49,732 bases of DNA from Flavobacteriales bacterium UBA1112. Lineage in GTDB: Bacteria; Bacteroidota; Bacteroidia; Flavobacteriales_D; Sanyastnellaceae. A program made the translations under genes and the position numbers. Below, piece by piece: positions 1 through 30,198 of this stretch; the first letter of the stretch is position 1; every line of letters begins with the position of its first letter. The stretch lies in NCBI GenBank assembly GCA_002313415.1, contig DCBH01000072.1:1-49732 (forward strand). The letters are read 5' to 3'. The notes below the pieces were generated by a model, which worked only from the letters and a program-made list of their open reading frames with translations, did not search any database and was not told where the DNA came from.

Positions 1-1845
1 TTCCTTGCGTTTGCGCTTGTGTTTTTCTCGATTCATGTTTTGCAGGCTCAAAATACGGGTCTAGACTCTTTGCGGACAGTGGTGAACAATTCAATTCATG
101 TGCCCTTGGGGGTAGCGACTTTCAAAACGCCCGTAGAAGTGAAGGGGTACTGCCGCTTTTTAGGATATGCCAGGGATTTGAGCCATCATCACGGCGACCA
201 CAACACGCCGTTGGTTTTACGTGCTGATGACGAGTTCAACGCACCAAATTTGAATGTCAACGTCACTGTTAGACCTACGGATGAGAGTTTTCTTGCATTG
301 CAGCTGTTGACCTTTGATCCGTTTTCTGGAACAGACGTGGATGACAGAATTTTTAGGTTGTCACGGCAGGGATTGGTGTTGACTGCTGGAACTGTGAAGG
401 ACTATGGCCAATTTAAATTGTCTTTTGGTGGTACTCAATTCGTGGAGCTTGGAGACTTTTTGATGAGTTCTGCGAAGCAGGTGCAAAACTCTTTGTTTGA
501 CCGAAATGCTTGGACCTACGTCTGGCCGATTGGTGTCCAGCATGAGAATTATCACAGTCGTTCTGATTACCTCCGTGAGGTGGATTTTGGAAAAAGACAA
601 TTCAACGGCTTGCGATGGTCTGCAAAAGACTTACCCGGTCAGATGAGTGTCGACCTTGTCGTGGGTAAAACCCCCTTCAACATCCTCAATTTGCCTGATC
701 ACATTGTCGCGGGCCGCGTCGGGAAAAAATACCGCCTTCAGCGATTCGAACTGGGAGGAATGAGGTCAAGGGGCTTGGATGCTTGGACCAATGGTGAATC
801 CTACGGGATGACGGCGTTGTCCGCCTCACACAAAGGGAAATTGGGAGCCTTGAGTTTGAAAAGCGATGTGGCTTGGGGGCGTCATGAAATCTCATCTCAG
901 GGAGTCCGTCAAGGAGGGTTCGCGTTTCAAACGAATTTGGGTTTACCCCGAAGATGGATTGGTTTTCCATTGAACGTAGAGGTCTTCGCAGTATCTCAGT
1001 CATACGTGAACTTACATTCAGCATTGATCAATACGTCTGTGAATGGATTCAGCTCAGAAACGTCATCGTTTAGTGGAGCAACGGTTCAAGACGGAGCCAG
1101 GCCCTTTGGCGCAGTCTTGACACCGATGCATTTGATGGCAAACAATCGAGCCACCATTCGTCTGACTACGAATTTGGCTCAAGGTCCGTTCCGCGTGAAT
1201 TTGGGTTATTTGATTTCACGGGAGTTTGAGAATCTATCCTCCGAAGTCACCTTTTATCACAAGGTTACAGGCCTCTACATGTCTCGTGTAGATCGTTTTC
1301 AGCAGCAAGCAGGTCCAAACGGGGAAATCACCACATTTTTTAGAGGGGCATATCAACGCGTAGGCGTTCTGTCTGAGGAGGTAAGTTCGGCTCCCAGAGG
1401 ATACAATGCCTTTCGAATCAATGCCAAATGGAGGAACAAGGGCCTCAAAAATCCCGCATTTTTGTTCTATCTCGGAGAGTTTTTGAGCACCCAGGAGCAA
1501 CCGGCGTTGCTCCCAAAGATGGGAACATCTGCGTTGGTTCGCGCGCATTACCACGAAGTAGATGGTTACGTGCCTGTGAATGAGAAAACAGCCCTCGTAT
1601 TCTACACAGGTCTGGAGCGTATTGTCGGCAACGAAAACACCGAGGGGAAGGGTGTGAATGAACAGGGAAACCCGATGCACCTGGACGGTTTAGGCACGGC
1701 CCTGGGCTTAGGGTTAGACATCAGCATGACCAAATCTTCCTCGCTCTTTTTAAGGAGCAAAAGAGTGCGTTATCAGGACCGTTCTGATGCGGGAATGCGC
1801 TTGAGGGGTTGGGAGGCCACAGTTGAATTCAAAATACAGTTTTGA
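1..1845 (+). CDS. Putative outer-membrane beta-barrel protein, unknown family (5' partial)
   Basis: Frame 1 is open to base 1 and reads FLAFALVFFSIHVLQAQ, a signal-peptide hydrophobic core, so the true start lies upstream of the window. The GTG at 19 is only the ORF-caller start. The protein has 608+ aa, no internal hydrophobic helices, and ends ...EATVEFKIQF (terminal Phe, BAM beta-signal-like). No plug or TonB-box motif was recognised. Confidence 0.6.
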   Translation, partial: FLAFALVFFSIHVLQAQNTGLDSLRTVVNNSIHVPLGVATFKTPVEVKGYCRFLGYARDLSHHHGDHNTPLVLRADDEFNAPNLNVNVTVRPTDESFLALQLLTFDPFSGTDVDDRIFRLSRQGLVLTAGTVKDYGQFKLSFGGTQFVELGDFLMSSAKQVQNSLFDRNAWTYVWPIGVQHENYHSRSDYLREVDFGKRQFNGLRWSAKDLPGQMSVDLVVGKTPFNILNLPDHIVAGRVGKKYRLQRFELGGMRSRGLDAWTNGESYGMTALSASHKGKLGALSLKSDVAWGRHEISSQGVRQGGFAFQTNLGLPRRWIGFPLNVEVFAVSQSYVNLHSALINTSVNGFSSETSSFSGATVQDGARPFGAVLTPMHLMANNRATIRLTTNLAQGPFRVNLGYLISREFENLSSEVTFYHKVTGLYMSRVDRFQQQAGPNGEITTFFRGAYQRVGVLSEEVSSAPRGYNAFRINAKWRNKGLKNPAFLFYLGEFLSTQEQPALLPKMGTSALVRAHYHEVDGYVPVNEKTALVFYTGLERIVGNENTEGKGVNEQGNPMHLDGLGTALGLGLDISMTKSSSLFLRSKRVRYQDRSDAGMRLRGWEATVEFKIQF

Positions 1846-3578
1846 TGCGCAGTGTTACAATAAGATGTTTGAGGCATCGAATCATGCGAGCTTGGATCTT
1901 GTCAGTGATTTGCATTCCATTGGCTGCAACTGCTCAATATCCTTCGTTTGAACTTGGAGGTTTGGCTCGGGGTGTATCCGATGTAGGCTTTTTGACTGCA
2001 GAGGATACCATTGCGCGTGACGTGAATGTGGAATCGCATGCCATTTATGATTTGGCCTTGAGGGGAAAAATCACTGCCAAGGCTGAGATTTATACTGAAC
2101 TTCGATTGGGCACCAATTTGGCCTTGTTTGACACAAGCGCATCCTATGCACAAGTGAGAAGAGTCCTGCTGTCGGGACAGCTCACGCCGAGGTGGAATTA
2201 TGAGATAGGAGACATCGATGTGGTTGGGACGCCCTTCACAATTTGGAATTCAAACACGGAGGGGGCCGTTCAAGAGTCCGCATTGTTTTCTCAGTGGCGA
2301 CAACTTCAGAACTACGAGAATTTCAGTGAGTCAAATTCATGGAGATTGCGAGGAGCAAAATTTGAAGGAAATTGGTTGATGAAGAATGGAGGTGAGGTGA
2401 AAACGTCAAATTTTGTGTCGCGCGTTCAGGCTTCAGATGAAGTACTTCGGCCAGATGTTGTTTTGGTGGGCTCGACCTTGTCTTGGGAAAGAAGCAACAT
2501 CTTGGCCGCTGTAAGAGTGCTAGACTTTGCGACTCTTGGAAAGACCATTCCCGATGGCCGTGGAAGTCATGTCGCCAATTTGGGTGGTGAGGTGAAATGG
2601 AAAGGCGAGGAGTGGCACTTACACGCTGAACTTGGGGGTTCCACTGCGACTTCGCTGGACATGGATGGTGTGCCCAAAGACTCAAATTCACCAACAAAAG
2701 GTGGGTATTGGCATGTTTCAAGCCAGTTTGATTTGGGCGCATCATGGAACGCATTGATTTCTGCGCGTTCAGTGTCAGACGAGTATATGGCACCGGCTGC
2801 CCAAACCAAGCGCCTTGTTTTTGATGCCGCACCATCGTCATTTTCACAAATCGGCAACGGTACGTGGGCTCGTCCTTTGTCTCAGGGAGACCTGTTGACT
2901 GCACCATACATTCCCCGGGGCAGTCGTCCTTGGAATCGAGCGATTCAACGCGAATTGATGACTTTCGACCCCAGGTACGGTACTGCAAGTCCATATGGCT
3001 TGGCAACACCAAATCGCAGGGGGTTGGAGATGGAACTAGAACACGGAAATGCGGAGGAGCCCTGGTCTGTCGTTGCCCGTCTTTTTGCCCTTCAGGATTT
3101 GACCCCGGAAGGAAGTGTGGCACGAAGGAATTACGTCGGATATGCCATTGCTGGCCACTTCGATTTGGCGACACTTTGGACCGGAAATCGATCCTTAAAA
3201 ATGCAAGGGGGATGGCAAAGTCAAGCTGTACAACGACCAGAAATTCTATTAGATCCAGTTGATTTTACCTCTACGGTGTTCGATTTGGGTGTCGACTGGG
3301 CCCTGGGTGAAAACATTCAACTTGGATATGGCGCCAAGAGAATTTCATCTCAAGGACTTGAATATATTGCAGTGCGGGACATCAATTTTGAAGTGATTGG
3401 TTTTGAACGAACGACGTTAGATGTGACAGACATGCTTCACGCTTGTGGAGTAACGTGGAAAATCAATGATCGAACTGAATTGACGACGCAATGGCAAAAG
3501 TGGTTGCTTCGTGACGCGCTGCAGGGCCATGATGGATCAATTTCAAAAGTGCTGTTTCTCTTTCAATCCAAATTCTGA
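1845..3578 (+). CDS. Putative outer-membrane beta-barrel protein, unknown family (possible distant paralog of the upstream gene)
   Basis: The ATG at 1845 overlaps the upstream TGA (TGATG). An alternative ATG at 1884 gives MRAWILSVICIPLAATAQ, a clean signal peptide. About 565-577 aa, rich in G/S/T/N/aromatic residues, ending ...VLFLFQSKF (terminal Phe beta-signal). No plug domain was seen. Confidence 0.6.
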   Translation: MRSVTIRCLRHRIMRAWILSVICIPLAATAQYPSFELGGLARGVSDVGFLTAEDTIARDVNVESHAIYDLALRGKITAKAEIYTELRLGTNLALFDTSASYAQVRRVLLSGQLTPRWNYEIGDIDVVGTPFTIWNSNTEGAVQESALFSQWRQLQNYENFSESNSWRLRGAKFEGNWLMKNGGEVKTSNFVSRVQASDEVLRPDVVLVGSTLSWERSNILAAVRVLDFATLGKTIPDGRGSHVANLGGEVKWKGEEWHLHAELGGSTATSLDMDGVPKDSNSPTKGGYWHVSSQFDLGASWNALISARSVSDEYMAPAAQTKRLVFDAAPSSFSQIGNGTWARPLSQGDLLTAPYIPRGSRPWNRAIQRELMTFDPRYGTASPYGLATPNRRGLEMELEHGNAEEPWSVVARLFALQDLTPEGSVARRNYVGYAIAGHFDLATLWTGNRSLKMQGGWQSQAVQRPEILLDPVDFTSTVFDLGVDWALGENIQLGYGAKRISSQGLEYIAVRDINFEVIGFERTTLDVTDMLHACGVTWKINDRTELTTQWQKWLLRDALQGHDGSISKVLFLFQSKF

Positions 3579-3579
3579 C

Positions 3580-4575
3580 ATGTCGTTTTTTCTATCTAAC
3601 CCAAAACTTTTAGGCACTTGGGCCTTCGGTCTTGTCGTCATGTGCTTCGTTGGTTGCGCGAAAGAGGAGAGTCTAGGCCCCGACCTCGAAAGCCTATACG
3701 GGGACCTCGATTACACAGAAGCCTTCAGTCACAACATGCCGAATGGAGTTCATTTTGAGCAAGGGGATACGGTTCGTTTTTCTTGCGGTTTCAATTTGCC
3801 AGTGGCCTACACCTTGTCATTGACAGGCCAAACTTCGGGGGCGACTTACGCCTTTCAAGGTCAAGGCATGCACGAACTCGATGTGCTTTGGTTCGGAGAT
3901 TGTGACAACGTGTTTTTTAGACAAAATGAGTGGGTTTATTGTTTGCTCGAATTTCCCGATCATCCGGACGATTTCAAACTGGATTCAGTGTTTGTGTGGG
4001 AACAACCTGATTTGTCCAATCGAGGTTTGCTTCTGGCATCTTTTGAAGAGATCAACCCCATTTTCAGCATCAGCAGTGGAGAGTTTACGGAATCACTTGA
4101 CGTGGTCACCGAAGCGTTAGATGCGGTTGAGGGCGGTGCTTACATGCGTGGCATTGGTGCAGGTGCAGGTTCTTGGTTTGGTGCACTTAGGTTGCCGCTC
4201 GACCCCCAAGATTTGTTGGGGTCTAGTTTGGGGAATACGTATCTGAACGTCCACGTCCGAAGTGATTACGAGGGGTCTGCTTCCGTCATCAAATTGTTTG
4301 AAGATTCCAACGGAGATGGACTGGTGACGAGTGGGGAGGACGAGGTATTCACCACAAAGCTTGCTGTCAATGCCGACAACACCTGGCATCGCATCAGCAT
4401 CCCTTGGTCAGATTTTGAGCTCGATTTGTCTGGCAACAATGTGTCGATCAATGGTCAGATTGACTTGGATCAAATTTCTCGTTTGGATTGTACTGTAAGT
4501 CAAACGGGAACGGCAAGCGGCACATATGGATTGGATGTCGACTATGTCATTTTGACTTTCGATCAGCCGTTTTAA
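3580..4575 (+). CDS. Lipoprotein with a probable beta-sandwich glycan-binding C-terminal domain
   Basis: The ATG at 3580 lies 2 nt after the upstream stop. The signal is MSFFLSNPKLLGTWAFGLVVMCFVGC with a lipobox Cys. The C-terminal roughly 100 aa (VIKLFEDSNGDG...WHRISIPWSDFEL...YGLDVDYVILTF) resembles CBM/CIA30-like sandwich domains; this is a weak motif-level call. Confidence 0.6.
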   Translation: MSFFLSNPKLLGTWAFGLVVMCFVGCAKEESLGPDLESLYGDLDYTEAFSHNMPNGVHFEQGDTVRFSCGFNLPVAYTLSLTGQTSGATYAFQGQGMHELDVLWFGDCDNVFFRQNEWVYCLLEFPDHPDDFKLDSVFVWEQPDLSNRGLLLASFEEINPIFSISSGEFTESLDVVTEALDAVEGGAYMRGIGAGAGSWFGALRLPLDPQDLLGSSLGNTYLNVHVRSDYEGSASVIKLFEDSNGDGLVTSGEDEVFTTKLAVNADNTWHRISIPWSDFELDLSGNNVSINGQIDLDQISRLDCTVSQTGTASGTYGLDVDYVILTFDQPF

Positions 4576-4659
4576 AAAGTTCATTGAGCCACGGGGCGAA
4601 GACATTTGTCGGTCTTATTCCATAGCTTGTCCATTCATTATTTGATTTAATTTACTGTG

Positions 4660-6357
4660 ATGAAAAAAGCAGCCGTTTTTTCTTTTTTGTTTGTTGGAAT
4701 CTCGACAGTGTGGTCTCAAGCGGACAGTGTGTGCAACCCCTCTTTTGAGACAGGTTTAACGGATTGGCAGAATTTCGCCAACAACGGCGCGGTTGCCACC
4801 TTCGACACATCTGCAGTCGCTGCAACAGAGGGCGCAGTTGGCGCGGTCATTGACATTCAAGATGTGAGTGCAGGTACCTGTGTGCTCAGTGCTTGTGTCT
4901 CAGACATGTATGCCAACCAAACGTACCGCATGTCGTTTTGGGCAAAGTCTGACAACGCCGTGGAAGTGTTGGCGACCATTTCAAAAGCGTCACCTGGCTA
5001 CAACAATTATGCTTCAGCAAATGTCGTTTTAACCAGCGACTGGATGCAGTATGAAATAGCGGGTTCAGTTGACGATGATTTGCTGTCAGATGTGCGGTTG
5101 GCCAAATTCAAATTCTTGACAGAGGGCACGGTGATGATTGACGACATTCAAATTGACATTTTGGAACTCGCTCCTGAAATCTGTCAAGGAAATTTTGAGG
5201 TTGGTTTGGATACGTGGGCGGTGAATCAGAACAATGGCTCAATTGCAGCTGATTTGGATGTGAATGAATTCTCAGAAGGATCGCAATCGGCGAGATTGAC
5301 GGTGAATGTTGAGGATGGCTCTCCCATTTTCTCGAGCTGTTCATCTTACATGCCCGGGGCCACCTCGTTGTCGGTGCACTTTTCAGCAAAATCCGATTTC
5401 AACGGGGCAGTGCTCGAGGCGAAGACGGCTTTGCAAGCTGCTCCGTACACGGTGTTCGGAGAGACGGAAGCCACGTTGACCGAGGAGTGGCAGGAATTCA
5501 CCTTCACTTCATATTCTGAGGAAGAAATCAATGGTGTTCGTCTGGCCAAGTTTGCCTTTCAATCCAGCGGGGTGTTTTGGATTGACGATGTCTGGTTTGA
5601 AGAGGTGCCGCCAATGCCTGTTGTATGCAACGGAGATTTTGAATCGGCATTGGATTCGTGGACGGTATCTGTGTCTGAAGATGCAGAAGCAACTGTCGCT
5701 GCGACACCAGCAACCTCATATGATGGGGTGGTTTGTGCATTTGCAGAAGTGACTTCTCCCGGAGAAGCGCCATCTTCAGTTCAATTGTCGAGTTGCAGGG
5801 CTGGAGTGGTTCAAGATTCGACATACGCCGTGAGTGTTTGGGTGAAAGGGACAGAGCCTGGCCTTGCGTTCAATGTATCTACCGCGTACGCTGATGCGCC
5901 ATTTCAGAGCCTGCATGCAGAGTCATTTGTAACGGATACGGAATGGACTGAATACTGCTGGGAGTTCACAGCAGATTCCACGGTGTACGATGCTCTTCGT
6001 GTTGTCAAATTTCAATTCTTGGAAACAGGCACATACTACATTGACGGTGCAGCATTGAAGCCTTTAAGTCATGTTTGTTCCAATGACACCCAAAGTCTGG
6101 GGCAAGAGCAAATCCTTGCGGAAGTGTCGTGTTTTCCCAATCCGGTTCGCCAAAAACTGCATGTCGACATACCTGTATCGTGGGGAGTGGTTGAGGCCAA
6201 TTTGTTGTCAGGCTCAGGTCAGCATTTGAAACGGTTAGCCATTCAGGGGCAGACGACAATCGACGTGCAATTTCTAACGCCCGGGTTTTACTTTTTGGTC
6301 TTGAATGGAGAAGAAGGTCGACGTTTCACAAAGGCCATCCAAGTCACATCGATTTGA
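4660..6357 (+). CDS. Secreted protein with three tandem CBM4/9-like carbohydrate-binding modules and a T9SS C-terminal sorting domain
   Basis: Signal peptide MKKAAVFSFLFVGISTVWSQ. Three modules of about 145 aa each open with C-[NQ]-x-x-FE-x-x-L-x-x-W and close with RL(A/V)KF.F...IDD. The C-terminus (CFPNPV...LTPGFYFLVL...) is a typical Por/T9SS CTD. Confidence 0.75.
   Translation: MKKAAVFSFLFVGISTVWSQADSVCNPSFETGLTDWQNFANNGAVATFDTSAVAATEGAVGAVIDIQDVSAGTCVLSACVSDMYANQTYRMSFWAKSDNAVEVLATISKASPGYNNYASANVVLTSDWMQYEIAGSVDDDLLSDVRLAKFKFLTEGTVMIDDIQIDILELAPEICQGNFEVGLDTWAVNQNNGSIAADLDVNEFSEGSQSARLTVNVEDGSPIFSSCSSYMPGATSLSVHFSAKSDFNGAVLEAKTALQAAPYTVFGETEATLTEEWQEFTFTSYSEEEINGVRLAKFAFQSSGVFWIDDVWFEEVPPMPVVCNGDFESALDSWTVSVSEDAEATVAATPATSYDGVVCAFAEVTSPGEAPSSVQLSSCRAGVVQDSTYAVSVWVKGTEPGLAFNVSTAYADAPFQSLHAESFVTDTEWTEYCWEFTADSTVYDALRVVKFQFLETGTYYIDGAALKPLSHVCSNDTQSLGQEQILAEVSCFPNPVRQKLHVDIPVSWGVVEANLLSGSGQHLKRLAIQGQTTIDVQFLTPGFYFLVLNGEEGRRFTKAIQVTSI
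4732..6048 (+). repeat. Three tandem CBM-like protein modules of about 440 bp (4732-5154, 5182-5598, 5626-6048)
   Basis: The repeat is at protein level: CNPSFETGLTDWQNF / CQGNFEVGLDTWAV / CNGDFESALDSWTV at module starts, and VRLAKFKFLTEGTVMIDDI / VRLAKFAFQSSGVFWIDDV / LRVVKFQFLETGTYYIDGA at module ends. The DNA copies have diverged and are not recent duplicates. Confidence 0.75.
6130..6354 (+). other. T9SS (Por) C-terminal sorting domain
   Basis: CFPNPVRQKLHVDIPVSW...IDVQFLTPGFYFLVLNGEEGRRFTKAIQVTSI-stop: an FPNP start, a GxY/F-hydrophobic motif and a basic/hydrophobic terminal strand. Confidence 0.75.
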
Positions 6358-6376
6358 TTGTTTGATGCTTTTGGAA

Positions 6377-8353
6377 ATGAAACATCTCAGCCTCATCATG
6401 CTCATTGCAGGTTCGTGCAATGTGCTTTTTGGTCAGGGCGATGACGTTTTTCCAATTTCTGTCACAAGACAATTTCATCCACCCACTTCGGTGCTGTGGG
6501 AAAATCCCAATGACGGAAGCCCTTCTGAATATGTACTGTCGCCCCAGGGCATTTCAGCTCCTGTCAAAGGCAGTCACTTTGGGTACACTCATCCCCACTT
6601 CTTGGGTGACGCCTCTGTCGAGGATACAGCCCTTGTTGCAAGGAGTCGGGCCCTTGGGCCCGCTTACATTAGATTTCCAGGAGGCAACGGAAGCAACAAA
6701 TATTTCTGGGATGGCAATCTCCCTGTCGCAATTTTGCAGGACGATGTTGTAACTGTTGATGGGTTGATTGACCCCGATGCATTCAACATGGGCATTGATG
6801 AGTTATTCCAAATTTGTGATTCTACAGGTGCAGAACCCGTCCTCGTTGTCAATTTTTCATTTGCGCGATACGGGCCTGGTGAGGACCGCGTGGCGAATGC
6901 AGCGGGGTATGCTGCGGATTGGGTACGTCATGTGAATCAGACGTTAGGCAGAAATGTCCGCTACTGGGAAATTGGCAACGAAAACTACGGCCCATGGCAG
7001 GCTGGTTATATGGTCGAAGGAGAACAGATTACAGGGACCATGTATGGCGAAATGTTCCAAGTTTTTGCAGATTCAATGAAATCTGCAGATCCATCCATCC
7101 AACTTGGGGCAGTCATTTATCCTTTGGATGAGGATTACGACGATTGGACTGCAGGGGTGTTGCCCGAGGTTCAAAATCACGCCGATTTCCTGATTGTACA
7201 CGACTATTTTACCTTCAGTCCCAACGAGAACAACATTTCATACTCACAAATGATGGCTAGTGTGTCTGAAGTGTCGGAGGACGCAGCTTCGGTGAGGTCC
7301 ATGGTATCGCAATACACCTCGAAGGACCCAGATCATTTTGCGCTCGCATTCACAGAGTTCAACTCCAACACGGGAAACCGCGAGGTGGCCATGGCCAATG
7401 CCCTCTTCATCGCACGTGTATTGCTTGCCCAAATTGAAGAAGGCTTCGATTTGTCGATGATTTGGAATTTGCAGAGTGGCGTTGCGCCAGACGGGGGCAG
7501 CCATGGCTTGTTGGCCAAAAACAGCCCATTCCAACCTGACGCCTCTCCTCGACCCACATATTTGACGTGTTGGTTGTTGCAGAAGTATTTGGGAGTTTCC
7601 ATTCAGCCAATGATTACGGGCATTTCTGGGGTGTACGCAGTTGAAACGATGCAGGCCGACGGTGCACGCGGTGGTGTCCTCATCAATACCAGTTCACAAG
7701 CGCGCAACGTCACATGGGATTCTCCGTCTTCGTTTAAACCTTATGTGCATTGGGATGTCTTGAGTGCACCGCACGAGACCTCCAAATTGGTGGCCTTGAA
7801 TGGCATCAGTCCGTCGAGTGTGGAGGGAGGACCTGTGGCCCCTGAACGTATGATGAGTCGAGGAACGTTGGAGCCAGGTGCGGTAATCTTTACCGTCCCT
7901 GCTTACTCAATCTTGGCCTTTTCGAGGGCTTCGGCATTGGAAACAGAGACAATCGTTTCTTGTGAGCCATACACACTGAACAATCAACTCTACACGTCCT
8001 CCGCACTCGTTTCAACATACAGTCTCGACTCTCAGACAGGCATTGCAGTTCCATCGCAATATGAGCTTCTCATTGCCGAACCTGGTTATTGCAGCACTGA
8101 GGGGTGCATGGATTCAAATTTTCTCGAATTTGACCCTTTTGCAGTGGCGGACAATGGTTCTTGCCAAACCCCAGTTGTCTTGGGCTGCATGTACAACGAA
8201 GCCGCCAACTTTAATCCAGCGGCCAACGTTGACGATGGCTCTTGTTCGATGATTGTAGATGAGAATTGTCCCGAAGATTTGGATGGTGACGGCAGCGTGA
8301 ATACGTCGGATTTGCTCGTGTTGCTGTCCACCTTTTCAGCCATCTGTCCGTGA
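6377..8353 (+). CDS. Secreted clan GH-A (TIM-barrel) glycoside hydrolase with GH51-like motifs, two Cys-bracketed 21-aa repeats and a dockerin-like tail
   Basis: The ATG at 6377 gives signal MKHLSLIMLIAGSCNVLFGQ. Motifs are IRFPGGNGSNKYFW, RYWEIGNENYGPWQAGY (candidate acid/base Glu; compare GH51 GNEMDGPWQ) and LAFTEFNSN (candidate nucleophile Glu). The family assignment is from memory of motifs only. Confidence 0.75.
   Translation: MKHLSLIMLIAGSCNVLFGQGDDVFPISVTRQFHPPTSVLWENPNDGSPSEYVLSPQGISAPVKGSHFGYTHPHFLGDASVEDTALVARSRALGPAYIRFPGGNGSNKYFWDGNLPVAILQDDVVTVDGLIDPDAFNMGIDELFQICDSTGAEPVLVVNFSFARYGPGEDRVANAAGYAADWVRHVNQTLGRNVRYWEIGNENYGPWQAGYMVEGEQITGTMYGEMFQVFADSMKSADPSIQLGAVIYPLDEDYDDWTAGVLPEVQNHADFLIVHDYFTFSPNENNISYSQMMASVSEVSEDAASVRSMVSQYTSKDPDHFALAFTEFNSNTGNREVAMANALFIARVLLAQIEEGFDLSMIWNLQSGVAPDGGSHGLLAKNSPFQPDASPRPTYLTCWLLQKYLGVSIQPMITGISGVYAVETMQADGARGGVLINTSSQARNVTWDSPSSFKPYVHWDVLSAPHETSKLVALNGISPSSVEGGPVAPERMMSRGTLEPGAVIFTVPAYSILAFSRASALETETIVSCEPYTLNNQLYTSSALVSTYSLDSQTGIAVPSQYELLIAEPGYCSTEGCMDSNFLEFDPFAVADNGSCQTPVVLGCMYNEAANFNPAANVDDGSCSMIVDENCPEDLDGDGSVNTSDLLVLLSTFSAICP
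8102..8245 (+). repeat. Two 21-aa Cys-bracketed modules (8102-8164, 8183-8245): GC-x17-(N/D)GSC
   Basis: GCMDSNFLEFDPFAVADNGSC and GCMYNEAANFNPAANVDDGSC are separated by QTPVVL. They share the pattern GCM-x3-(F/A)-x-(F/N)-(D/N)P-x-A-x-x-D-(N/D)-GSC. Confidence 0.6.
8267..8350 (+). other. Single dockerin/EF-hand-like calcium-binding repeat bracketed by Cys-Pro at the extreme C-terminus
   Basis: CPEDLDGDGSVNTSDLLVLLSTFSAICP-stop. It contains the D-x-D/N-x-DG-x-V-x3-D-x-L-x-LL pattern of a dockerin type I repeat, but only one copy. Confidence 0.6.
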
Positions 8354-10026
8354 TTTTTGAGACAACGTACATACGGTTTTTGATGTGTCTCGTATTGGGG
8401 ATGGTGACTGTGGTGTCGTTGCATGGGCAACGACCACCGATGCATGGCAACCCTGGTTGGTTTCTGGACGACTGGCAACCTAAAAAAGCGAAACTTCCGA
8501 AGAATGTGAGGCAGATTGCTGCTCCCGAAACAACTCCGGATGTTTTTGCATCAGTTGATTTTGGGACTCCTTTGACCAAGGTGAGTCAATACATTTTTGG
8601 AAACAACCTTGGCATTTGGGTGAATCGTTCGAATGTTGACAAGGAGGAGTTTGTTTTGCCATTGCGCGACATGGGCATTTCTGTCATTAGGTATCCCGGT
8701 GGAAATGCATCCAACGATTTTTTTTGGAATGCCTCAGTACGGTCTGAATGTCCTCCCGGTGTCCCGGATACGATTTGGAAAAACAATGGGAGGCAAACAC
8801 CGCCAAAGTTGGGCCGCGAGGGCAGGTTCAAGTTCAGTCCCGAGCATTTTTACGATTTGCTTTTGACTACTGGAGCGACAGGGTCAGTTTGTGTGAATTA
8901 TTCGTATGCGCTTTACGGGGAAGAAGAAGAGGAGGCCAAACGAGTCCAGCTTGCTGCGGAGTATGCTGGAGATTGGGTTCGGCATGCCAATGTGGAGAAC
9001 AAGCTTGGAATTCAGTTTTGGGAGATTGGCAATGAAAATTGGGGTCCATGGCAGGCTGGGTTCAGCGTCCCAGGCCGCGGAGACATCAGCCCCAAGAAAT
9101 ACGGAGAGCACTGCAGAGCTTTTATCGAGGAAATGAAGGCTGCTGATTCATCCATCAAGGTGGGTGTGGTTGGATATCAAAAACCAAAGTCCAACAACCC
9201 GATTCAAAGTCGGTGGAATGAAGAGGTTCTGCCGGAGGTCGCCAAGGTCGCCGATTACATCATTTTGCACGATTACTTCACCGATTTCAAGGCAGTTTTA
9301 AGTCCTGAAGAAATGTTTGCCTCTGTGGATACAGCATATTCACACATTGACGTCATCAACAAAGCTTGGGCTGAAACGGTGCAGTCTTCTGACTCGCCAC
9401 TGCCGATTGCATTGACTGAGTTCAACACCCGCAGCCGAGCAACCATTAGCGCTGGGAATGGTGCCACCAACGTCTCACATTCGGCTGGGCTCTTTATTTC
9501 TCACGCTTTGGGTGAATTCATCCGTCAGGGTTACGGTTCAGCCATGATGTGGGACATTTCAAATGGCTATGCAGATGGGGAAGATCATGGGGTTTTTGCA
9601 TCTCCCAAGGAATTTGACGTTCCAGAGTTGACGCCACATCCCTCATTCTATCATTACTACATGTATGACAAATGTTTTGGTGACACCTATTACGATTGTC
9701 CTACAGATGATCCACAATTGCGGGTGCATGCCTCGAGTTTTTCCTCAGGTGAGGCTGGACTTGTCATTTTAAATGGAAGTCGAAAGGCGCGTACGTTGGA
9801 AGTTGAATTGGTCAACATGGGGGAAGTGAGGAAAGCATATCAATACCTCGTGCACAATGACGACCCTCTTTCGCGTAAAACATACATCAACGGTGAGACA
9901 GGGCCCCACGCCGCGGGTGGGCCAGAGAGGTATTGGAAGGTTCCAGCACAATCATATCCCATCATTGAAAACAAATTGGTTGTCTCATGTCCACCATTCA
10001 GCGCCAATTACGTGATGATCCGATGA
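8350..10026 (+). CDS. Clan GH-A glycoside hydrolase, paralog of the upstream gene (no C-terminal tag)
   Basis: The GTG at 8350 overlaps the upstream TGA (GTGA); an alternative ATG lies at 8383 (MCLVLGMVTVVSLHGQ). It has the same motif set as the upstream gene: IRYPGGNASNDFFW, QFWEIGNENWGPWQAGF and IALTEFNTRS. Confidence 0.75.
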   Translation: MIFETTYIRFLMCLVLGMVTVVSLHGQRPPMHGNPGWFLDDWQPKKAKLPKNVRQIAAPETTPDVFASVDFGTPLTKVSQYIFGNNLGIWVNRSNVDKEEFVLPLRDMGISVIRYPGGNASNDFFWNASVRSECPPGVPDTIWKNNGRQTPPKLGREGRFKFSPEHFYDLLLTTGATGSVCVNYSYALYGEEEEEAKRVQLAAEYAGDWVRHANVENKLGIQFWEIGNENWGPWQAGFSVPGRGDISPKKYGEHCRAFIEEMKAADSSIKVGVVGYQKPKSNNPIQSRWNEEVLPEVAKVADYIILHDYFTDFKAVLSPEEMFASVDTAYSHIDVINKAWAETVQSSDSPLPIALTEFNTRSRATISAGNGATNVSHSAGLFISHALGEFIRQGYGSAMMWDISNGYADGEDHGVFASPKEFDVPELTPHPSFYHYYMYDKCFGDTYYDCPTDDPQLRVHASSFSSGEAGLVILNGSRKARTLEVELVNMGEVRKAYQYLVHNDDPLSRKTYINGETGPHAAGGPERYWKVPAQSYPIIENKLVVSCPPFSANYVMIR

Positions 10027-10096
10027 AGCTTGCTCCTGTAAATTTGTCCGCATCTTGCTCCTTGTATGGGGTGCTCACGCAATTGATTTTGCACCA

Positions 10097-11527
10097 ATGA
10101 GAATTGCTCTTGTCACATCAACATCGCTGGCTTTGCTGTGCATCAGCTGGGCCGCCGTGGAGATCAAAACACAAACTGGAGTGGAGCCGCTTGACAAGCG
10201 GACCAACGTGTTGTTTGTTGCCATTGATGACTTAAGACCTGAGCTTGGTTGTTATGGCAGCCCAATTGCGCACACGCCAAATTTTGATGCTTTTGCAGAA
10301 AGTGCTTTTGTTTTTGATCGCGCGGTATGCGCAGTTCCCGTATGCGGTGCATCTCGCGCATCTGTGATGACAGGTTTACGGCCCAATGTTGAACGATTCA
10401 GGACTTTTTCGTCACGTGCTGATGAAGATGCACCGAATGTGCCTACCATGGCGGCTTGGCTCAAATCGAACGGATACATCACAATTTCCAATGGGAAAAT
10501 CCTGCATAAAAATCAGGACTCGAAGGAGGCGTGGAGCGAACAACCTTGGAGGCCTCAACGCAATTTCCGTGATTACCAAAATCCTGAAAATGTCGCAGCA
10601 GTCAATGCTGGAGGCCATGGACCTGCAACCGAACGAGGCCTTTCCTCTGCGATTTACGGTGACGACCTGACTTTGGAGAAGAGTTTGGCTGACTTGGAAA
10701 GATTGTCGGGTTCTGATCAACCTTTTTTTCTTGGGGTGGGCTTTTTTAAGCCGCATCTTCCCTTTTGTGCACCAGAGGAATTTTGGAATCTTCATGACGA
10801 GGATTCCATTGGATTGGCCAAGAATCGTTTTGCACCACAACACGCTCCTGAGCAAGCCATGCACGATTATGGGGAATTAAGAGCGTATGAGGACATTCCT
10901 GACGACACTGAATTGGACGTGCCTGATTCGATGCAATTGGTCTTGAGACATGGTTACATGGCTTGCGTAAGCTATGTGGATGACTTGTTTGGTCAATTGA
11001 TGAAAAAGTTGGTAGACAGTGGATTGGCCGACAACACCCTTGTTGTCGTTTGGGGCGATCACGGCTGGCAATTGGGTGAGCACAACCTTTGGGCAAAGCA
11101 TTGCAACTTTCAGACCTCACTGAAAGTCCCTTTGATGATTCGTCTTCCAAACCAGAGCCAAGGCTCACATGTTTCTTCAATGGTGGAGTTGACAGATTTG
11201 TATCCTACCATCTGTTCTGTCATTGGTTTGGCGCAACCTCCTCACGTTCAGGGTACAGATTTGAAACTCGTCACGAGCGAATTTGAAACAGCCCATGAAC
11301 GGTTGACATTTTCAAAATTTCATGGCGGCGAAACGCTCACCACCAAGCGTTTCAGTTATACGGAGTACAGGCATAAAGTGTCGGATAAGTTCTTGGCATC
11401 CATGCTTTTCGACCTGGCGGTGGACCCCAATGAGAATGACAATGTCACGGACTCGTCGACTTACGCGTCAATCAAAGCTGACTTGTCTTTTCAATTGGAT
11501 TCTCTTCGCATACTTTCGAGGAAGTAA
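10097..11527 (+). CDS. Formylglycine-dependent (S1) sulfatase, iduronate-2-sulfatase-like
   Basis: The ATG at 10097 gives signal MRIALVTSTSLALLCISWAA. The motif NVLFVAIDDLRPELGCYG...PNFDAF...VCGASRASVMTGLRP aligns to the IDS-type AVCAPSRVSFLTGRRP signature. Later motifs are GFFKPHLPF and VVVWGDHGWQLGEH. Confidence 0.85.
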   Translation: MRIALVTSTSLALLCISWAAVEIKTQTGVEPLDKRTNVLFVAIDDLRPELGCYGSPIAHTPNFDAFAESAFVFDRAVCAVPVCGASRASVMTGLRPNVERFRTFSSRADEDAPNVPTMAAWLKSNGYITISNGKILHKNQDSKEAWSEQPWRPQRNFRDYQNPENVAAVNAGGHGPATERGLSSAIYGDDLTLEKSLADLERLSGSDQPFFLGVGFFKPHLPFCAPEEFWNLHDEDSIGLAKNRFAPQHAPEQAMHDYGELRAYEDIPDDTELDVPDSMQLVLRHGYMACVSYVDDLFGQLMKKLVDSGLADNTLVVVWGDHGWQLGEHNLWAKHCNFQTSLKVPLMIRLPNQSQGSHVSSMVELTDLYPTICSVIGLAQPPHVQGTDLKLVTSEFETAHERLTFSKFHGGETLTTKRFSYTEYRHKVSDKFLASMLFDLAVDPNENDNVTDSSTYASIKADLSFQLDSLRILSRK

Positions 11528-11542
11528 ATAAATTTTAAAATA

Positions 11543-12745
11543 ATGAGCATGCAGCGTCTTTTTTTGTTTCTCTGGTCTTTTGGAATGGTGCCTTTTGTTT
11601 CGATGGCTCAAGGAATCCCACAGCCCCAAAATGTTGCGCCAATTTTGAGTGACTCGACGTGCTCGATCAATTGCCAACATCCTGGATATCGTTTGATGAC
11701 CCAGGTTTTGGACGGTGAAACGATTACAAGGGAGTACATTATCCATGTGCCTGCCGGATATCAAAAGGGCGACAATTTGCCTTTGGTCATTGCCTATCAC
11801 GGTTTTGGTGGCTGTGCATATTACTGGGAGGATGAATTGGACAGCAGTGGATTGAATGATTTGGCTGATGAGGAAGGATTCTTTGTAGCCTACCCTCAGG
11901 CGGCATACAGACCTGCCAAGGAGGACACGTATTGGGAGCCGGGATTCAATGGTGGCGAGAGCATTTATTTGGATGACATCTACTTTACCGAGCAGTTGAT
12001 TGGTCACATCCACGATGAGTTTGCAGTGGACTTGTCGAGCACCTATGCCGCTGGATATAGCAATGGGGGCATGCTGACATACAGCTTGGCTTGTTTGCGT
12101 GGCGATTTGTTTTCCGCGGTCTGTGTCATGTCAGGAGCCCTGCTTGACGGGATGGACAGCTGTGACCAGAACAACCCGCTCCCGATGATTATTTTTCACG
12201 GTGTTGCAGATTTTGTGCTGCCCTATTATGGAGACCAATTTTACGCCCCAGTCCAAGACGTGGTTGGGCTATGGCTTACGCACAATCAAATCCCTGCTTC
12301 GAGCCTTGTCTCCACGGAATTGAATGGAGGCAATGTCACTCATGACGCCTATCAGGGTGGTGCAAACAACACATGCTTGTCTTTCTACACCGTGGTCGAG
12401 GAATATGGGGCACCGGGTGATCATGTCTGGTTCACAGAAGACATGGATGGGGTTTCCCCAAATCGAATCATGTGGGAATTTTTCACGGAAGGGTGCGCAG
12501 GAACGAGCGAGGTTAGTGCATCACCACATGCTGTAGCAGAAGCATTCCCTGTGCCTTTCGACGATCGAATTTTTCTTGGAACACCATCCCTCGCCTTGTC
12601 GACATATCGCATGTTTGATTTGCGAGGCGAACTCATTCAACAGGGTCGGGTAGAGGGTGATGCTTCGATTCTCGGGTTGGGTGGTTTGCCTTCTGGCTTC
12701 TACTTGTTGAAGGCAGGAGATGCGACATTCAAGGTCGTGAAGTGA
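11543..12745 (+). CDS. Secreted esterase of the PHB-depolymerase/feruloyl-esterase (CE1, LpqC-like) family with a T9SS CTD
   Basis: Signal peptide MSMQRLFLFLWSFGMVPFVSMAQ. Further motifs are PLVIAYHGFGG, nucleophile elbow AAGYSNGG (G-x-S-x-G) and IIFHGVAD. A C-terminal Por-type sorting domain is present. Confidence 0.75.
   Translation: MSMQRLFLFLWSFGMVPFVSMAQGIPQPQNVAPILSDSTCSINCQHPGYRLMTQVLDGETITREYIIHVPAGYQKGDNLPLVIAYHGFGGCAYYWEDELDSSGLNDLADEEGFFVAYPQAAYRPAKEDTYWEPGFNGGESIYLDDIYFTEQLIGHIHDEFAVDLSSTYAAGYSNGGMLTYSLACLRGDLFSAVCVMSGALLDGMDSCDQNNPLPMIIFHGVADFVLPYYGDQFYAPVQDVVGLWLTHNQIPASSLVSTELNGGNVTHDAYQGGANNTCLSFYTVVEEYGAPGDHVWFTEDMDGVSPNRIMWEFFTEGCAGTSEVSASPHAVAEAFPVPFDDRIFLGTPSLALSTYRMFDLRGELIQQGRVEGDASILGLGGLPSGFYLLKAGDATFKVVK
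12542..12742 (+). other. T9SS (Por) C-terminal sorting domain
   Basis: AFPVPFDDRIFLG...YRMFDLRGELIQQG...LPSGFYLLKAGDATFKVVK-stop. Confidence 0.7.
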
Positions 12746-12852
12746 GGCGTCGAAGTTGAGGCAAACGAGCCTTGAGCGTGACTGAATCTTCGCGATTGTA
12801 CGATTAGAACAGATTCAGAAATTTGAAATCACATTTTTCTGGGGATGGCAAT

Positions 12853-14598
12853 TCAAGGACATACCTGACCAAATTGACCTAACAGAAGCAGAACATCGGC
12901 CACGGAGACGATGCCGTCTTGGTTCAAGTCAGAGGGACAGCTTGCACACAGTTGGAGGACTTCTTCTCCATCGTTGCAGTCGTTGTCGTTGGTGTCTATC
13001 AAAAGGGGGTTTGTATCTGAAAAAAACAGTTCAAACCCGTCTGTTAAGCCGTCATTGTCGGTGTCGGCATCTAGGGGGTCTGTTCCAATTTCGATTTCTT
13101 GAAAATCAGAGATTCCATCGTCATCGCTGTCTTGGATTTCGAAAGGTGTTAGGGAAAAATCCATGACAAGTGGGAGGTGGTCGGAAGCAGAATACGTGTC
13201 GTTGATGTCCAACCCGAATTCTGCAAGCACATCGGTTGGTGTGGATTCTGTTTCAAGTACAACCGCGTGCTCCTTGTCAATCACGGCATCGCTGAACAAA
13301 ATGAAGTCCAGACGGCCTGGTGGAAAATTGCCATCGCCATCGTCTCTCCATGTGTGCGTAAAGGGCTGGTGCGAATGCCGTGGCAGGGCGTCTGACCACG
13401 GAGTGCCGTCCCAATCAGGCATGTTGCCAACACCATAGGTTTGAGTCTGGACAATGTCGCCATTCAACAGCGTTTCGAGTTGTTGAACATACCCTACGAG
13501 ATTGAGATCACCAGCGTATACGATTGGCGTATTCTCTTCCAAGTTGCCTTCGTTGCTGACGATCCAAGCCATCATTTGATCTACCTCATCTTGACGAGCT
13601 TCGTCATTGCCGCAACAGCTTAAATGACTGTTGATGAACAGCATGGGCCCACCTAACGAATCAGGGATGCCAATGAGAAGCGGGAATTGTCTGGGAATGG
13701 CATCCCAAGATTGAAGTTGCGGCCACACGGTGGCGGTAATCAAATCCCCTTTTTTTGCGGTTTGCCACCCTTCGTCGGAGCTCAGTGGCAGCCATTCGTC
13801 AAGAAGTGATTTGACCTGCGAAGGGCTTGTTCCTCCGCATTCACTGAATAAAAATACATCTGCATTTAGTGCAGAGAGGATCCGCTCAAAGTGAACTTGG
13901 CGGTTGGTATTGATTAAGCCATTTGCCAAGACGTTGTATGCACAGACTCGAATGGATGATGAATTGGTTTTGGACAGGGTTAAAGGCTGCACATCTTCAG
14001 AAGCAGCATCGCTGAAATCGTAGACAAAAGACAGACCTGCATTGGGTAAGTCGTCGTTGAATTGTGCATCTCTAAACAAAATTCTGATGGAGTCTTGCGG
14101 AAAGAGAAAGGTCCCACCGTCAAGAACAACATTTCGACGCAGCGCGAATTCAAATTCATTGGAGGTGACCGTTGGCGCTGGAATCAAACCAATCTCTGAA
14201 AAGTTTACCTGATCAGCTGGGCCAAAATTGGTGTAGGCAAAAAGTCCATTGAAGTCAATCCCCAATTCAGAACCAAAACCTTCACGGACGGGATACCCAG
14301 TAAACTCATTCATGTCCACATCAATCTGGAGGAATAAATTGTGTGGATACAAGGCATCGGTCAAATCAATTTCCGAGGCCAAGCGCACATAGATAAAAAG
14401 ATGATCGAAGTTGCTACTGACCTTCATTTCCAAAAGGTCGACGGGGGAGGCTTCTTCCCAAGCAGAATCTTCTAACCCTTCGATGTCTGACCAGTCGTCA
14501 AATTGACCGTCAATGACAATTGGGTTGCTTTGGGCTTGGATGGAAGAAAGCGAAGCCATGAGCGCAAAAACCATCCAACCAATTTGAAAGCGTCGCAT
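12853..14598 (-). CDS. Secreted endonuclease/exonuclease/phosphatase (EEP) family protein with TSP3-like Ca repeats and a dockerin-like tail
   Basis: ATG at 14598 (GTG at 14601). The signal is MRRFQIGWMVFALMASLSSIQAQ. The EEP core has RVCAYNVLANG (Asn), FLFSECGG (Glu), GDLNLVG and the terminal SDHLPLVMDF (His). An N-terminal beta-sandwich of about 190 aa (IVIDGQFDDWSD...) is of unknown function. Confidence 0.75.
   Translation of the reverse strand: MRRFQIGWMVFALMASLSSIQAQSNPIVIDGQFDDWSDIEGLEDSAWEEASPVDLLEMKVSSNFDHLFIYVRLASEIDLTDALYPHNLFLQIDVDMNEFTGYPVREGFGSELGIDFNGLFAYTNFGPADQVNFSEIGLIPAPTVTSNEFEFALRRNVVLDGGTFLFPQDSIRILFRDAQFNDDLPNAGLSFVYDFSDAASEDVQPLTLSKTNSSSIRVCAYNVLANGLINTNRQVHFERILSALNADVFLFSECGGTSPSQVKSLLDEWLPLSSDEGWQTAKKGDLITATVWPQLQSWDAIPRQFPLLIGIPDSLGGPMLFINSHLSCCGNDEARQDEVDQMMAWIVSNEGNLEENTPIVYAGDLNLVGYVQQLETLLNGDIVQTQTYGVGNMPDWDGTPWSDALPRHSHQPFTHTWRDDGDGNFPPGRLDFILFSDAVIDKEHAVVLETESTPTDVLAEFGLDINDTYSASDHLPLVMDFSLTPFEIQDSDDDGISDFQEIEIGTDPLDADTDNDGLTDGFELFFSDTNPLLIDTNDNDCNDGEEVLQLCASCPSDLNQDGIVSVADVLLLLGQFGQVCP
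12856..12939 (-). other. Single dockerin/EF-hand-like repeat bracketed by Cys-Pro at the extreme C-terminus
   Basis: CPSDLNQDGIVSVADVLLLLGQFGQVCP-stop. It is 28 aa long and shares 13 of 28 positions with the tail at 8267-8350, including both CP brackets. Confidence 0.6.
12940..13131 (-). repeat. Thrombospondin type 3-like acidic calcium-binding repeats
   Basis: DSDDDGISDFQEIEIGTDPLDADTDNDGLTDGFELFFSDTNPLLIDTNDNDCNDGEE: recurring D-x-D-x-DG-x-x-D motifs. Confidence 0.65.
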
Positions 14599-14860
14599 CA
14601 CCTCTACAAGATATGATTGAATGCGTTGAAGAGAAATGCCTGAGCAAGCATTGACTCCCCCAAATCGGGTAAATTATTTAGAACGATTCAAAATAACCCA
14701 TTTGAGGTATGTTTTACGAACCTTATCCTTCAGAATTTTGAACTGAACAGATTTGGATTCCATGTGTTCCTGAAATTGGTTTTCAACGATTCGCATCGAG
14801 GCTGAACGCAGCTTCATGCATGGCAGCAGGTAATCGGAATATTCAAAAGTATTGTTCATC

Positions 14861-17041: not shown

Positions 17042-17078
17042 ACGTCCTTTTCTCTCGTCTTCTCTCAATCCAACTTTG

Positions 17079-30067: not shown

Positions 30068-30198
30068 TCCTTTCACACCAGCAAATGGCGAGATGGGATC
30101 GAGGTGGAATGGGGATGAATTGGCGCCAGACAAGTTCACGGAGCAAAGGTACGCCTGTAATGCAGCAAGAGGAGGGGCATTCACGACCTTTGGCAACC

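Follow-up and report, generated by a model that had tools for sequence, protein, structure and literature searches.

A stretch of 49,732 nt from an uncultured marine Flavobacteriales bacterium (contig DCBH01000072.1 of a metagenome-assembled genome, MAG; hereafter the window) begins with a locus of eight co-oriented, tightly packed open reading frames (ORFs) at positions 1-12745 of the plus strand. They encode two outer-membrane beta-barrel proteins, B1 and B2, a lipoprotein, LP, and a set of binding proteins and enzymes for glycan breakdown. We think it fairly probable that this is a polysaccharide utilization locus (PUL)-like system for a sulfated, esterified glycan, in which the B1-B2-LP triad carries out both capture and import, the transport role being one that we infer. 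The prediction of PULs in Bacteroidota, and with it much of marine carbon-cycle genomics, assumes that uptake runs through a SusC/SusD pair. Here a conserved, unannotated three-gene module appears to take the place of that pair in open-ocean Flavobacteriales, and elsewhere the same module stands beside at least six other enzyme sets. A first-pass annotation of this DNA had proposed a PUL-type locus for a sulfated, esterified polysaccharide, and the sulfatases, glycoside hydrolases (GHs), esterase and carbohydrate-binding module (CBM) protein that we find together agree with that proposal.

Conservation of the triad

Our strongest evidence, read from sequence, comes from comparative genomics. 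The 34 related loci comprise 26 at near or medium distance, six distant ones, to which hidden Markov models (HMMs) trained on the near loci were applied, and two more (L033 and L034) in which the two genes after B1 were matched by length only. In every fetched locus that does not end within the triad, B1, B2 and LP are adjacent and in the same order. The 26 near and medium-distance loci come from at least 14 MAG species and several ocean metagenomes, and in them the triad is accompanied by GH3, GH51-like, S1 sulfatase and CBM4_9 genes. In the six distant loci the models gave three consecutive full-length matches, with E-values ranging from 1e-48 to 1e-107 for B1, from 1e-94 to 1e-122 for B2 and from 1e-29 to 1e-54 for LP.

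The triad keeps changing company in these distant genomes. Its neighbours are GH9 and GH5+CBM6/35 in L028; a directly adjoining SSF symporter, GH3 and GH16 in L029; a GH5 mannosidase, a ROK kinase and mannose-6-phosphate isomerase in L027; GH2, GH31, xylulokinase and xylose isomerase, with an MFS permease a few genes away, in L031; and GH5, pectate lyase and GH43 in L030. GH16/GH3/GH64 and GH16 genes, respectively, lie beside the triads of L033 and L034. Several of the distant loci also have an SSF/MFS permease or a Y_Y_Y/7TMR sensor. Judged by family, the enzymes would be of laminarin, cellulose, mannan, xyloglucan and pectin type. A fixed triad amid changing enzymes, sensors and permeases has the look of the outer-membrane unit of a PUL.

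Some genomes have the module in tandem. L009 (L009:1-4067), L010, L017 and L020 possess a further set, made up of a B2-like fragment and an LP-like gene, immediately upstream of the main locus, and in L022 and L024 the extra upstream gene is LP-like only. After the extra set come a CBM30-like protein and a clan GH-A protein of GH2_C-like type, and the B1 of the upstream copy lies beyond the fetched flank.

Two barrels without a plug

B1 (1..1845) and B2 (1845..3578), both on the plus strand, were called as ORFs and modelled with AlphaFold2; B1 belongs to an unannotated family, and the sequence family of B2 is a different one. Each begins with a signal peptide, ending in VFFSIHVLQA before Q in B1 and in IPLAATA before QYP in B2, and each closes on an aromatic residue (EFKIQF and LFQSKF, respectively), a terminal Phe that is invariant in the alignments of both families. 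Neither protein has a Pfam or NCBIfam match. Against PDB sequences the B1 family profile found no match at all, and the B2 profile found nothing significant, with a chance-level E of about 0.6. Plug and TonB_dep_Rec gave no match even at E 0.01 in B1, B2 and ten distant relatives, and the two family alignments, with their unconserved N-termini, contain no conserved N-terminal motif fit as a TonB box.

The AlphaFold2 models, built with the family alignments, are of moderate confidence, with pLDDT 66.5, pTM 0.67 and about 24 strands for B1, and pLDDT 61.7, pTM 0.59 and 22 strands for B2. The first strand lies at about residue 45 in B1 and 34 in B2, right after the signal peptide, with no N-terminal globular domain in between, which together with the unconserved N-termini argues that there is neither a plug domain nor a candidate TonB box. 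A Foldseek search of the PDB with both models returned outer-membrane barrels only, at TM-scores of about 0.4 and with E-values down to 3e-8 (B1). The top scores, 0.41-0.44, were to the TonB-dependent transporter (TBDT) barrels BtuB, ZnuD, PfeA, PirA and FrpB, and the other matches were to the ushers PapC and FimD, LptD, AlgE, chitoporin, maltoporin and porins; such matches to models give the fold class of B1 and B2 and no family. By their predicted all-beta fold, signal peptides and C-terminal aromatic residues, B1 and B2 are outer-membrane beta-barrels. This is how they had been read from the start, as two barrels with signal peptides, KIQF and QSKF ends and no plug or TonB box, and nothing in Pfam, NCBIfam or the PDB sequences, or among the generic barrels of the fold search, places them in a well-known non-transport family.

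The most conserved parts of the barrels are their long non-strand inserts, which are poorly placed by AlphaFold. In B1, the inserts at residues 147-199, 332-373 and 421-449 hold 39 of the 97 invariant residues within 124 of 614 positions (20% of the length); in B2, non-strand inserts span residues 134-169 and 311-390. In B1 and B2 alike, strands 5 and 13 are the ones after which the two largest inserts come; with the short turns taken as periplasmic, these are the L3 and L7 positions. The conserved inserts may fill or gate the lumen of each barrel. At sequence level a paralogy of B1 and B2 finds no support, with BLASTP at E 0.29 and an hhalign probability of 6%; what they share is limited to where the large inserts fall. 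A PorP/SprF-type partner of type IX secretion (T9SS) was also rejected for the barrels, on the grounds of no family match and the wrong size.

Among 5.8 billion proteins the B1 family has 47 word-level relatives and the B2 family only 23, the latter with full-length HMM matches in the distant loci. An exhaustive HMM search for B1 retrieved 244 clusters at 50% identity, 102 of them with E <= 1e-30. The named B1-type members are all entered as 'hypothetical protein' and come from Flavobacteriales, Bacteroidales, Cytophagales, Crocinitomicaceae, Cryomorphaceae and MED-G20 MAGs, or from Tara. No named or cultured carrier emerged from cluster look-ups (30 proteins) and a word-based homolog search, which gave only such entries, from MAGs of Flavobacteriales, Bacteroidales and Cytophagales. 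No C. hutchinsonii protein occurs among the named cluster members, and a scan of genome contigs matched marine MAGs only. Finally, three distant B1 relatives (P0100, P0104 and P0113; L027:10001-12382) carry a CBM_4_9 domain between signal peptide and barrel, at residues about 24-160, with the barrel starting from near 200.

The lipoprotein

LP (3580..4575, plus strand; 331 aa) was recognized by its lipobox, MCFVGC followed by AKEE, in line with the Cys-lipobox lipoprotein first annotated after the barrels. When 12 LP-type proteins of near and distant loci are aligned, the lipobox Cys is kept in 11 of 12 aligned columns, and x-K-(D/E)... follows it in nine of the 12. The sequence after the Cys resembles the K-(D/E)2 lipoprotein export signal (LES) that was defined for Capnocytophaga and has a counterpart in Bacteroides (PMC6222051). 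Since the lipobox is conserved and is followed by this K-(D/E)2-like motif, LP is probably surface-exposed.

The C-terminal domain of LP has weak matches to Pfam CIA30 (E 6e-5) and, in three of the 12 members, to CBM_11 (best E 1.7e-4). Among PDB entries the LP profile fits best to CBM11 of C. thermocellum (1v0a/6r3m), again weakly at E 0.024. No SusD-family match was obtained for LP; its weak matches are to the beta-sandwich folds CIA30 and CBM11 only.

The upstream flank and the search for SusC/SusD

The window starts within B1, and the flank upstream of its first base was therefore read from relatives. The TARA contig L001 serves as a proxy, being 98.5% identical in nucleotides to window positions 1-12776 in an ungapped alignment; L001 and L002 are at 99% protein identity. 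B1 is probably truncated by four codons at the window start, as a TTG lies 12 nt upstream in L001, and initiation there would give the signal peptide M-Y-R-VFLAFALVFFSIHVLQA followed by Q. The mature B1 protein is thus complete within the window.

A divergent sulfatase, a GH3 and a protein of about 646 aa lie upstream of B1 in L001, L002, L003-L008 and L013-L015, followed by housekeeping genes. The divergent sulfatase is S1_8-like, and its S1_8 matches in the PDB are lambda-carrageenan enzymes. The ~646-aa protein (L006:2185-4125, with homologs in L001, L003, L014 and L021) has no Pfam, NCBIfam or PDB match. Most relatives have the gene of this conserved protein upstream of GH3; L003 has it downstream of the sulfatase, at the position of the window's esterase.

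A SusC/SusD pair immediately upstream, which would have counted against the first-pass proposal, is absent from the flank as far as it reaches, 5 kb in L001 and 10 kb in the more distant syntenic L006 and L014. Moreover, none of the Pfam-annotated related loci contains SusC, SusD, Plug or TonB_dep_Rec. At 17076-19409 the window itself has a gene for a TonB-dependent receptor; with a DUF4625 protein as its partner, it has the look of a metal-uptake system.

Enzymes and binding protein of the locus

The gene after LP (4657..6357, plus strand) encodes a non-catalytic protein in which Pfam recognizes three CBM_4_9 stretches (E 7e-25) and which ends in a putative sorting domain of T9SS type A. The first-pass annotation had it as a T9SS cargo with three CBM4/9-like modules; the modules stand as described, and the sorting domain is slightly below threshold here (Por_Secre_tail 24.5 bits vs a cut-off of 27; TIGR04183 21.7 vs 23) and above cut-off in the orthologs (Por_Secre_tail, PF18962). 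Those orthologs measure 565-570 aa in most related loci and 583-590 aa, by longest-ORF call, in L003-L005 and L013.

GHa (6377..8353) and GHb (8350..10026), both on the plus strand, are paralogs with 30% identity (E 5e-57). GHa contains the motifs FPGGNG, WEIGNENYGPWQAG and AFTEFN, and TEFN occurs in both proteins. NCBIfam ArfA matches GHa at E 1e-17 and GHb at E 2e-14, with 64 and 53 bits vs a cut-off of 625, and PDB matches of the two are to GH51 arabinofuranosidases only (E 3e-13). A Pfam scan found no match in either, and the precomputed PF22848 ASD1_dom is present on orthologs. The GH motif WEIGNEN(Y/W)GPWQAG (WEIGNENYGPWQAG in GHa) aligns with WCLGNEMDGPWQVG of the GH51 enzyme 5o7z. At the position of the Glu of GNE, the 2c7f chain has Ala (GNA, vs GNE in 5o7z); 2c7f is the E173A mutant, and since the Glu aligns with the mutated residue, it is the equivalent of the acid/base. 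The 1pz3 match, which runs as far as residue 296 of the chain, takes in the region of the nucleophile. By these comparisons GHa and GHb are GH51-like members of clan GH-A, with the family assignment unsettled. Two paralogous clan GH-A hydrolases had been noticed at first reading, and GH51-like enzymes are in keeping with polysaccharide breakdown.

The two paralogs differ at their ends. GHa opens with a short signal peptide ending in LIAGSC (6377-6420), possibly a lipobox; it also has two small repeats rich in Cys, and its C-terminal tail (8267-8350) is dockerin-like and bracketed by Cys. GHb has a signal peptide only, with neither lipobox nor sorting tail, and is probably periplasmic. These features suggest different final locations, with GHa outside the cell and GHb in the periplasm.

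The sulfatase gene spans 10055..11527 (plus strand), with the ATG at 10097 as the likely start. Pfam identifies a Sulfatase domain (PF00884, E 6e-41), and the best PDB matches are 6hhm (P18_S1_7, E 9e-66) and human iduronate-2-sulfatase (5fql, E 2e-59), the latter in accord with the iduronate-2-sulfatase-like S1 enzyme first proposed. The signature C-G-A-S-R at 10343-10357 has Ala where most S1 enzymes have Pro. From the signature and the nearest solved relatives, the enzyme is predicted to be S1_7-like.

The final gene (11543..12745, plus strand) encodes an alpha/beta-hydrolase of the polyhydroxybutyrate (PHB)-depolymerase/feruloyl-esterase, CE1-like type, matching NCBIfam e_dPHAscl_type1 (E 1e-33, 116.6 bits vs a 150-bit cut-off) and the feruloyl esterase 9j07 in the PDB (E 6e-14). 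The CE1/PHB-depolymerase-like part of the earlier call is retained; the T9SS C-terminal domain that went with it is weak, at 17.9 bits vs 23 for TIGR04183.

Locus layout, edges and expression

The ORF calls show eight consecutive plus-strand genes with tiny or overlapping junctions, as first annotated, and one junction needs correction. B1 and B2 overlap by 1 nt in TGATG at 1843-1847 (B1 stop TGA at 1843-1845, B2 ATG at 1845-1847), and the GHa stop and GHb start overlap in GTGA at 8350-8353. The gap between the B2 stop (3576-3578) and the LP ATG (3580), given earlier as 2 nt, is really 1 nt. A promoter and terminator scan yielded fewer sites than shuffled sequence and is uninformative; the sigma-70 consensus is unsuited to Bacteroidota anyway.

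Synteny between the window and L001 ends at window position 12776 (L001:17750), 31 nt past the esterase stop, and this break marks the right edge of the locus. The edge is a recombination or indel point inside one population. Past 12776 the window has an EEP-family enzyme (12853-14601, minus strand) and L001 has a different, T9SS-tailed protein.

Short contigs from two marine metatranscriptomes are at least 99% identical to the window on LP (3932-4152, with one C>T at 4065), the CBM gene (5103-5720), GHa (7138-7329 and 8146-8353), the sulfatase (10845-11438) and the esterase (11722-11932). They hint that the locus is transcribed in situ and say nothing on operon structure.

Discussion

We observe the gene content of the locus, the absence of SusC/SusD and of a plug, the fold class of the barrels and the synteny of the triad with changing carbohydrate-active enzymes (CAZymes); where the proteins are located, whether the barrels serve transport, their TonB independence and the substrate are inferred. 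Based on these data we can outline how the locus might work. The protein with three CBM4_9 modules, presumably exported by the T9SS, and the probable surface lipoprotein, with its weakly CBM11-like C-terminal domain, would hold the polymer at the cell surface, where the esterase, presumably another T9SS cargo, and the tailed GHa would strip its ester groups and cut it. The oligosaccharides would then cross the outer membrane through B1 and B2, a presumably co-translated, plug-less pair of 22-24 strands, whose lumens the long conserved L3 and L7 loops may narrow or gate. Breakdown would be finished in the periplasm by GHb, by GH3 and by sulfatases of the S1_7 and S1_8 types.

A glycan with a 2-O-sulfated xylose or similar residue plus ester groups is the probable substrate, as suggested by the S1_7/S1_8 relatives, the GH3, the GH51-like hydrolases, the esterase of CE1-like type and the CBM4_9 modules. 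There is some likeness here to the ulvan PUL. The window sulfatase is close to P18_S1_7 (6hhm), the upstream sulfatase of the relatives is S1_8-like, GH3 is found in the relatives, and we take the ulvan PUL to contain a GH3 beta-xylosidase. The S1_8 family includes the exo-2-sulfo-xylose sulfatase P32_S1_8 of the Formosa agariphila ulvan PUL (Reisky 2019 via PMC9096561). However, unlike that PUL, the window locus lacks an ulvan lyase, GH105, GH78 and genes for rhamnose. Ulvan itself was rejected as the substrate on the absence of a lyase, GH105 and GH78; any similarity may be confined to the kind of sulfate ester.

With a canonical Bacteroidota PUL the locus shares co-oriented barrels, a surface lipoprotein, glycan binders, surface and periplasmic CAZymes and sulfatases, as well as a modular build in which the outer-membrane unit is kept while the enzymes vary with the substrate. 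CAZymes and accessory enzymes are thus co-localized as in a canonical PUL, but a SusC-like and a SusD-like protein are both missing. The triad differs in having no plug, TonB box, N-terminal extension or SusD (tetratricopeptide repeat, TPR) protein, and in having two different barrels rather than one; the surface enzymes of the locus would be exported mainly by means of T9SS C-terminal domains, not as lipoproteins.

A closer parallel is found in Cytophaga. The C. hutchinsonii 'atypical PUL' chu_1276-1280 encodes two outer-membrane proteins needed for the use of cellulose and cello-oligosaccharides (PMC12016534; PMC5553014), a pair of beta-sandwich binding proteins, of which one includes a CBM11-like module, and an endoglucanase (PMC12016534). 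Compared by architecture, both loci have co-oriented tandem outer-membrane proteins, one or more beta-sandwich or CBM-like binders and a GH, with no SusC/SusD. Furthermore, the structure predicted for CHU_1276 is a beta-barrel and, like B1 and B2, finds TBDT barrels as matches, and the C-terminal module of CHU_1279 resembles CBM11 (PDB 6R3M), the same entry group as the weak best match of LP (PMC12016534). The triad of L028 lies beside GH9 and GH5 cellulases, which recalls the Cytophaga cellulose cluster. The enzymes of the window locus, in contrast to the Cytophaga endoglucanase, are sulfatases, GH51-like enzymes, an esterase and, in relatives, GH3, and its host is a planktonic marine Flavobacteriales bacterium rather than a soil cellulolytic glider. 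The Cytophaga cluster has been published only in three close cellulolytic relatives (PMC12016534; PMC5553014). Given chu_1276-1280, the architecture in the window is probably not wholly new; by that analogy the locus is probably PUL-like and of Cytophaga type, and would widen that type to take in sulfated marine glycans as well as uncultured Flavobacteriales that abound in the ocean.

Proteobacteria, too, have substrate-specific glycan channels that are plug-less barrels and whose genes accompany those for glycan catabolism (LamB maltoporin, ScrY, the chitoporin ChiP and the alginate pore AlgE); in these the lumen is probably likewise narrowed by inward-folding loops, and chitoporin, AlgE and maltoporin are among the fold matches of B1 and B2. 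Those channels have 16-18 strands and much smaller chains of 308-466 residues, with no sequence relation to B1 or B2. By contrast, B1 and B2 have 22-24 strands, form an obligate pair with a lipoprotein, and have homologs found only on metagenomic Bacteroidota-type contigs.

Other functions for the triad have to be weighed against capture and import. One is a surface platform for assembly or presentation, which would anchor T9SS-exported and dockerin-tailed enzymes and binding proteins and leave uptake to a TonB-dependent transporter encoded elsewhere. We hold this to be unlikely, although T9SS C-terminal domains are found on most neighbouring enzymes in all contexts and the dockerin-like tail of GHa needs a partner. 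Two barrels of 22-24 strands far exceed what anchoring needs, the conserved L3/L7-type inserts resemble pore-constricting loops, and distant triads occur near inner-membrane sugar permeases, SSF in L029 and MFS in L031. The window does hold a TonB-dependent receptor, but one that, with its DUF4625 partner, looks metal-related. The Cytophaga data point both ways, since cells that lose CHU_1276 or CHU_1277 have less cell-associated beta-glucosidase activity, with altered presentation of surface enzymes under discussion, whereas CHU_1277 has been reported to take part in cello-oligosaccharide assimilation (PMC5553014).

It is still less probable that the barrels are an energised SusC-like importer in disguise, a degenerate or split TBDT in which loops or the partner barrel take the role of the plug and LP is a SusD-like lid. 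In its favour, 22-stranded TBDT barrels (BtuB, ZnuD, PirA, FrpB) head the fold matches of B1 and B2, the predicted CHU_1276 structure is reported to retrieve TBDTs (PMC12016534), and a lipoprotein always comes after the barrels, as SusD does after SusC. Yet TM-scores near 0.4 are generic for large barrels, with usher, LptD and porin barrels scoring similarly, and PDB profile searches yield no TBDT. The failure to detect Plug or TonB_dep_Rec extends from B1 and B2 to their ten distant relatives, no conserved N-terminal motif would serve as a TonB box, and LP is of beta-sandwich, CBM-like type and not alpha-helical TPR like SusD. An export function, for polysaccharide or proteins and only incidental to the catabolic genes, is disfavoured and seems to us very improbable. 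The fold search does return AlgE, the PapC and FimD ushers and LptD as well, but glycosyltransferases, Wzx/Wzy or ABC exporters lie beside the triad in none of the 34 loci (the sugar-modifying genes of L033 are upstream only, on the opposite strand and separated from the triad), and the neighbours everywhere are hydrolases, lyases, sulfatases, CBM proteins and sugar permeases.

Several points weigh against glycan import by the triad, as we propose it. The transport role of the locus genes rests on sequence and models; the models are of moderate confidence (pLDDT 62-67), and the conserved loops are precisely their low-confidence parts, which makes a placement in the lumen a guess. The N-terminus of an outer-membrane barrel normally faces the periplasm, as would a CBM fused to it in the distant B1 relatives, which is odd for a glycan binder. 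A passive channel suits poorly the scavenging of dilute glycans in the open ocean, and a SusC/SusD pair elsewhere in the genome could serve the locus. Neither the window nor the flanking DNA in its close relatives showed an inner-membrane transporter or a regulator, and in the two marine metatranscriptomes no contig fell on B1 or B2. As to the substrate, the GH family assignment is below curated thresholds and the call correspondingly weak.

A further step would be to regard B1-B2-LP as a second general glycan-import machine of Bacteroidota beside SusC/SusD, a heteromeric, plug-less, loop-gated barrel pair with a CBM-like lipoprotein that is swapped between enzyme sets and that in some lineages has a CBM fused to the barrel. 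This we put forward tentatively, at somewhat less than an even chance. If true, the glycan-degrading capacity of abundant uncultured marine lineages such as MED-G20, Crocinitomicaceae and Cryomorphaceae would be systematically underestimated, as PUL predictors that depend on SusC/SusD would miss triad loci. An import role would amount to a second uptake paradigm, would explain polysaccharide use by "PUL-poor" planktonic lineages, would give a function to two sizeable unannotated protein families (B1 alone with 244 clusters), and would bear on the long-unsolved uptake of cellulose fragments in Cytophaga. It would also pose a mechanistic puzzle, namely how a plug-less barrel of 22-24 strands can be sealed and yet pass sulfated oligosaccharides. 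A 2026 review of bacterial glycoside transporters includes neither Cytophaga nor TonB-independent uptake and mentions a porin for maltose only (PMC13543919).

Other genes in the window

Two more glycan-related proteins are encoded outside the locus, a GH2 beta-mannosidase-like protein (33699-36185, minus strand) and a BD-FAE/carboxylesterase with a T9SS C-terminal domain (37120-38400). The window also encodes a full nitric-oxide-synthase oxygenase domain at 28829-30217 on the minus strand (PF02898, E 8.5e-123), with a PNGase F-like protein (26938-28164) near it.

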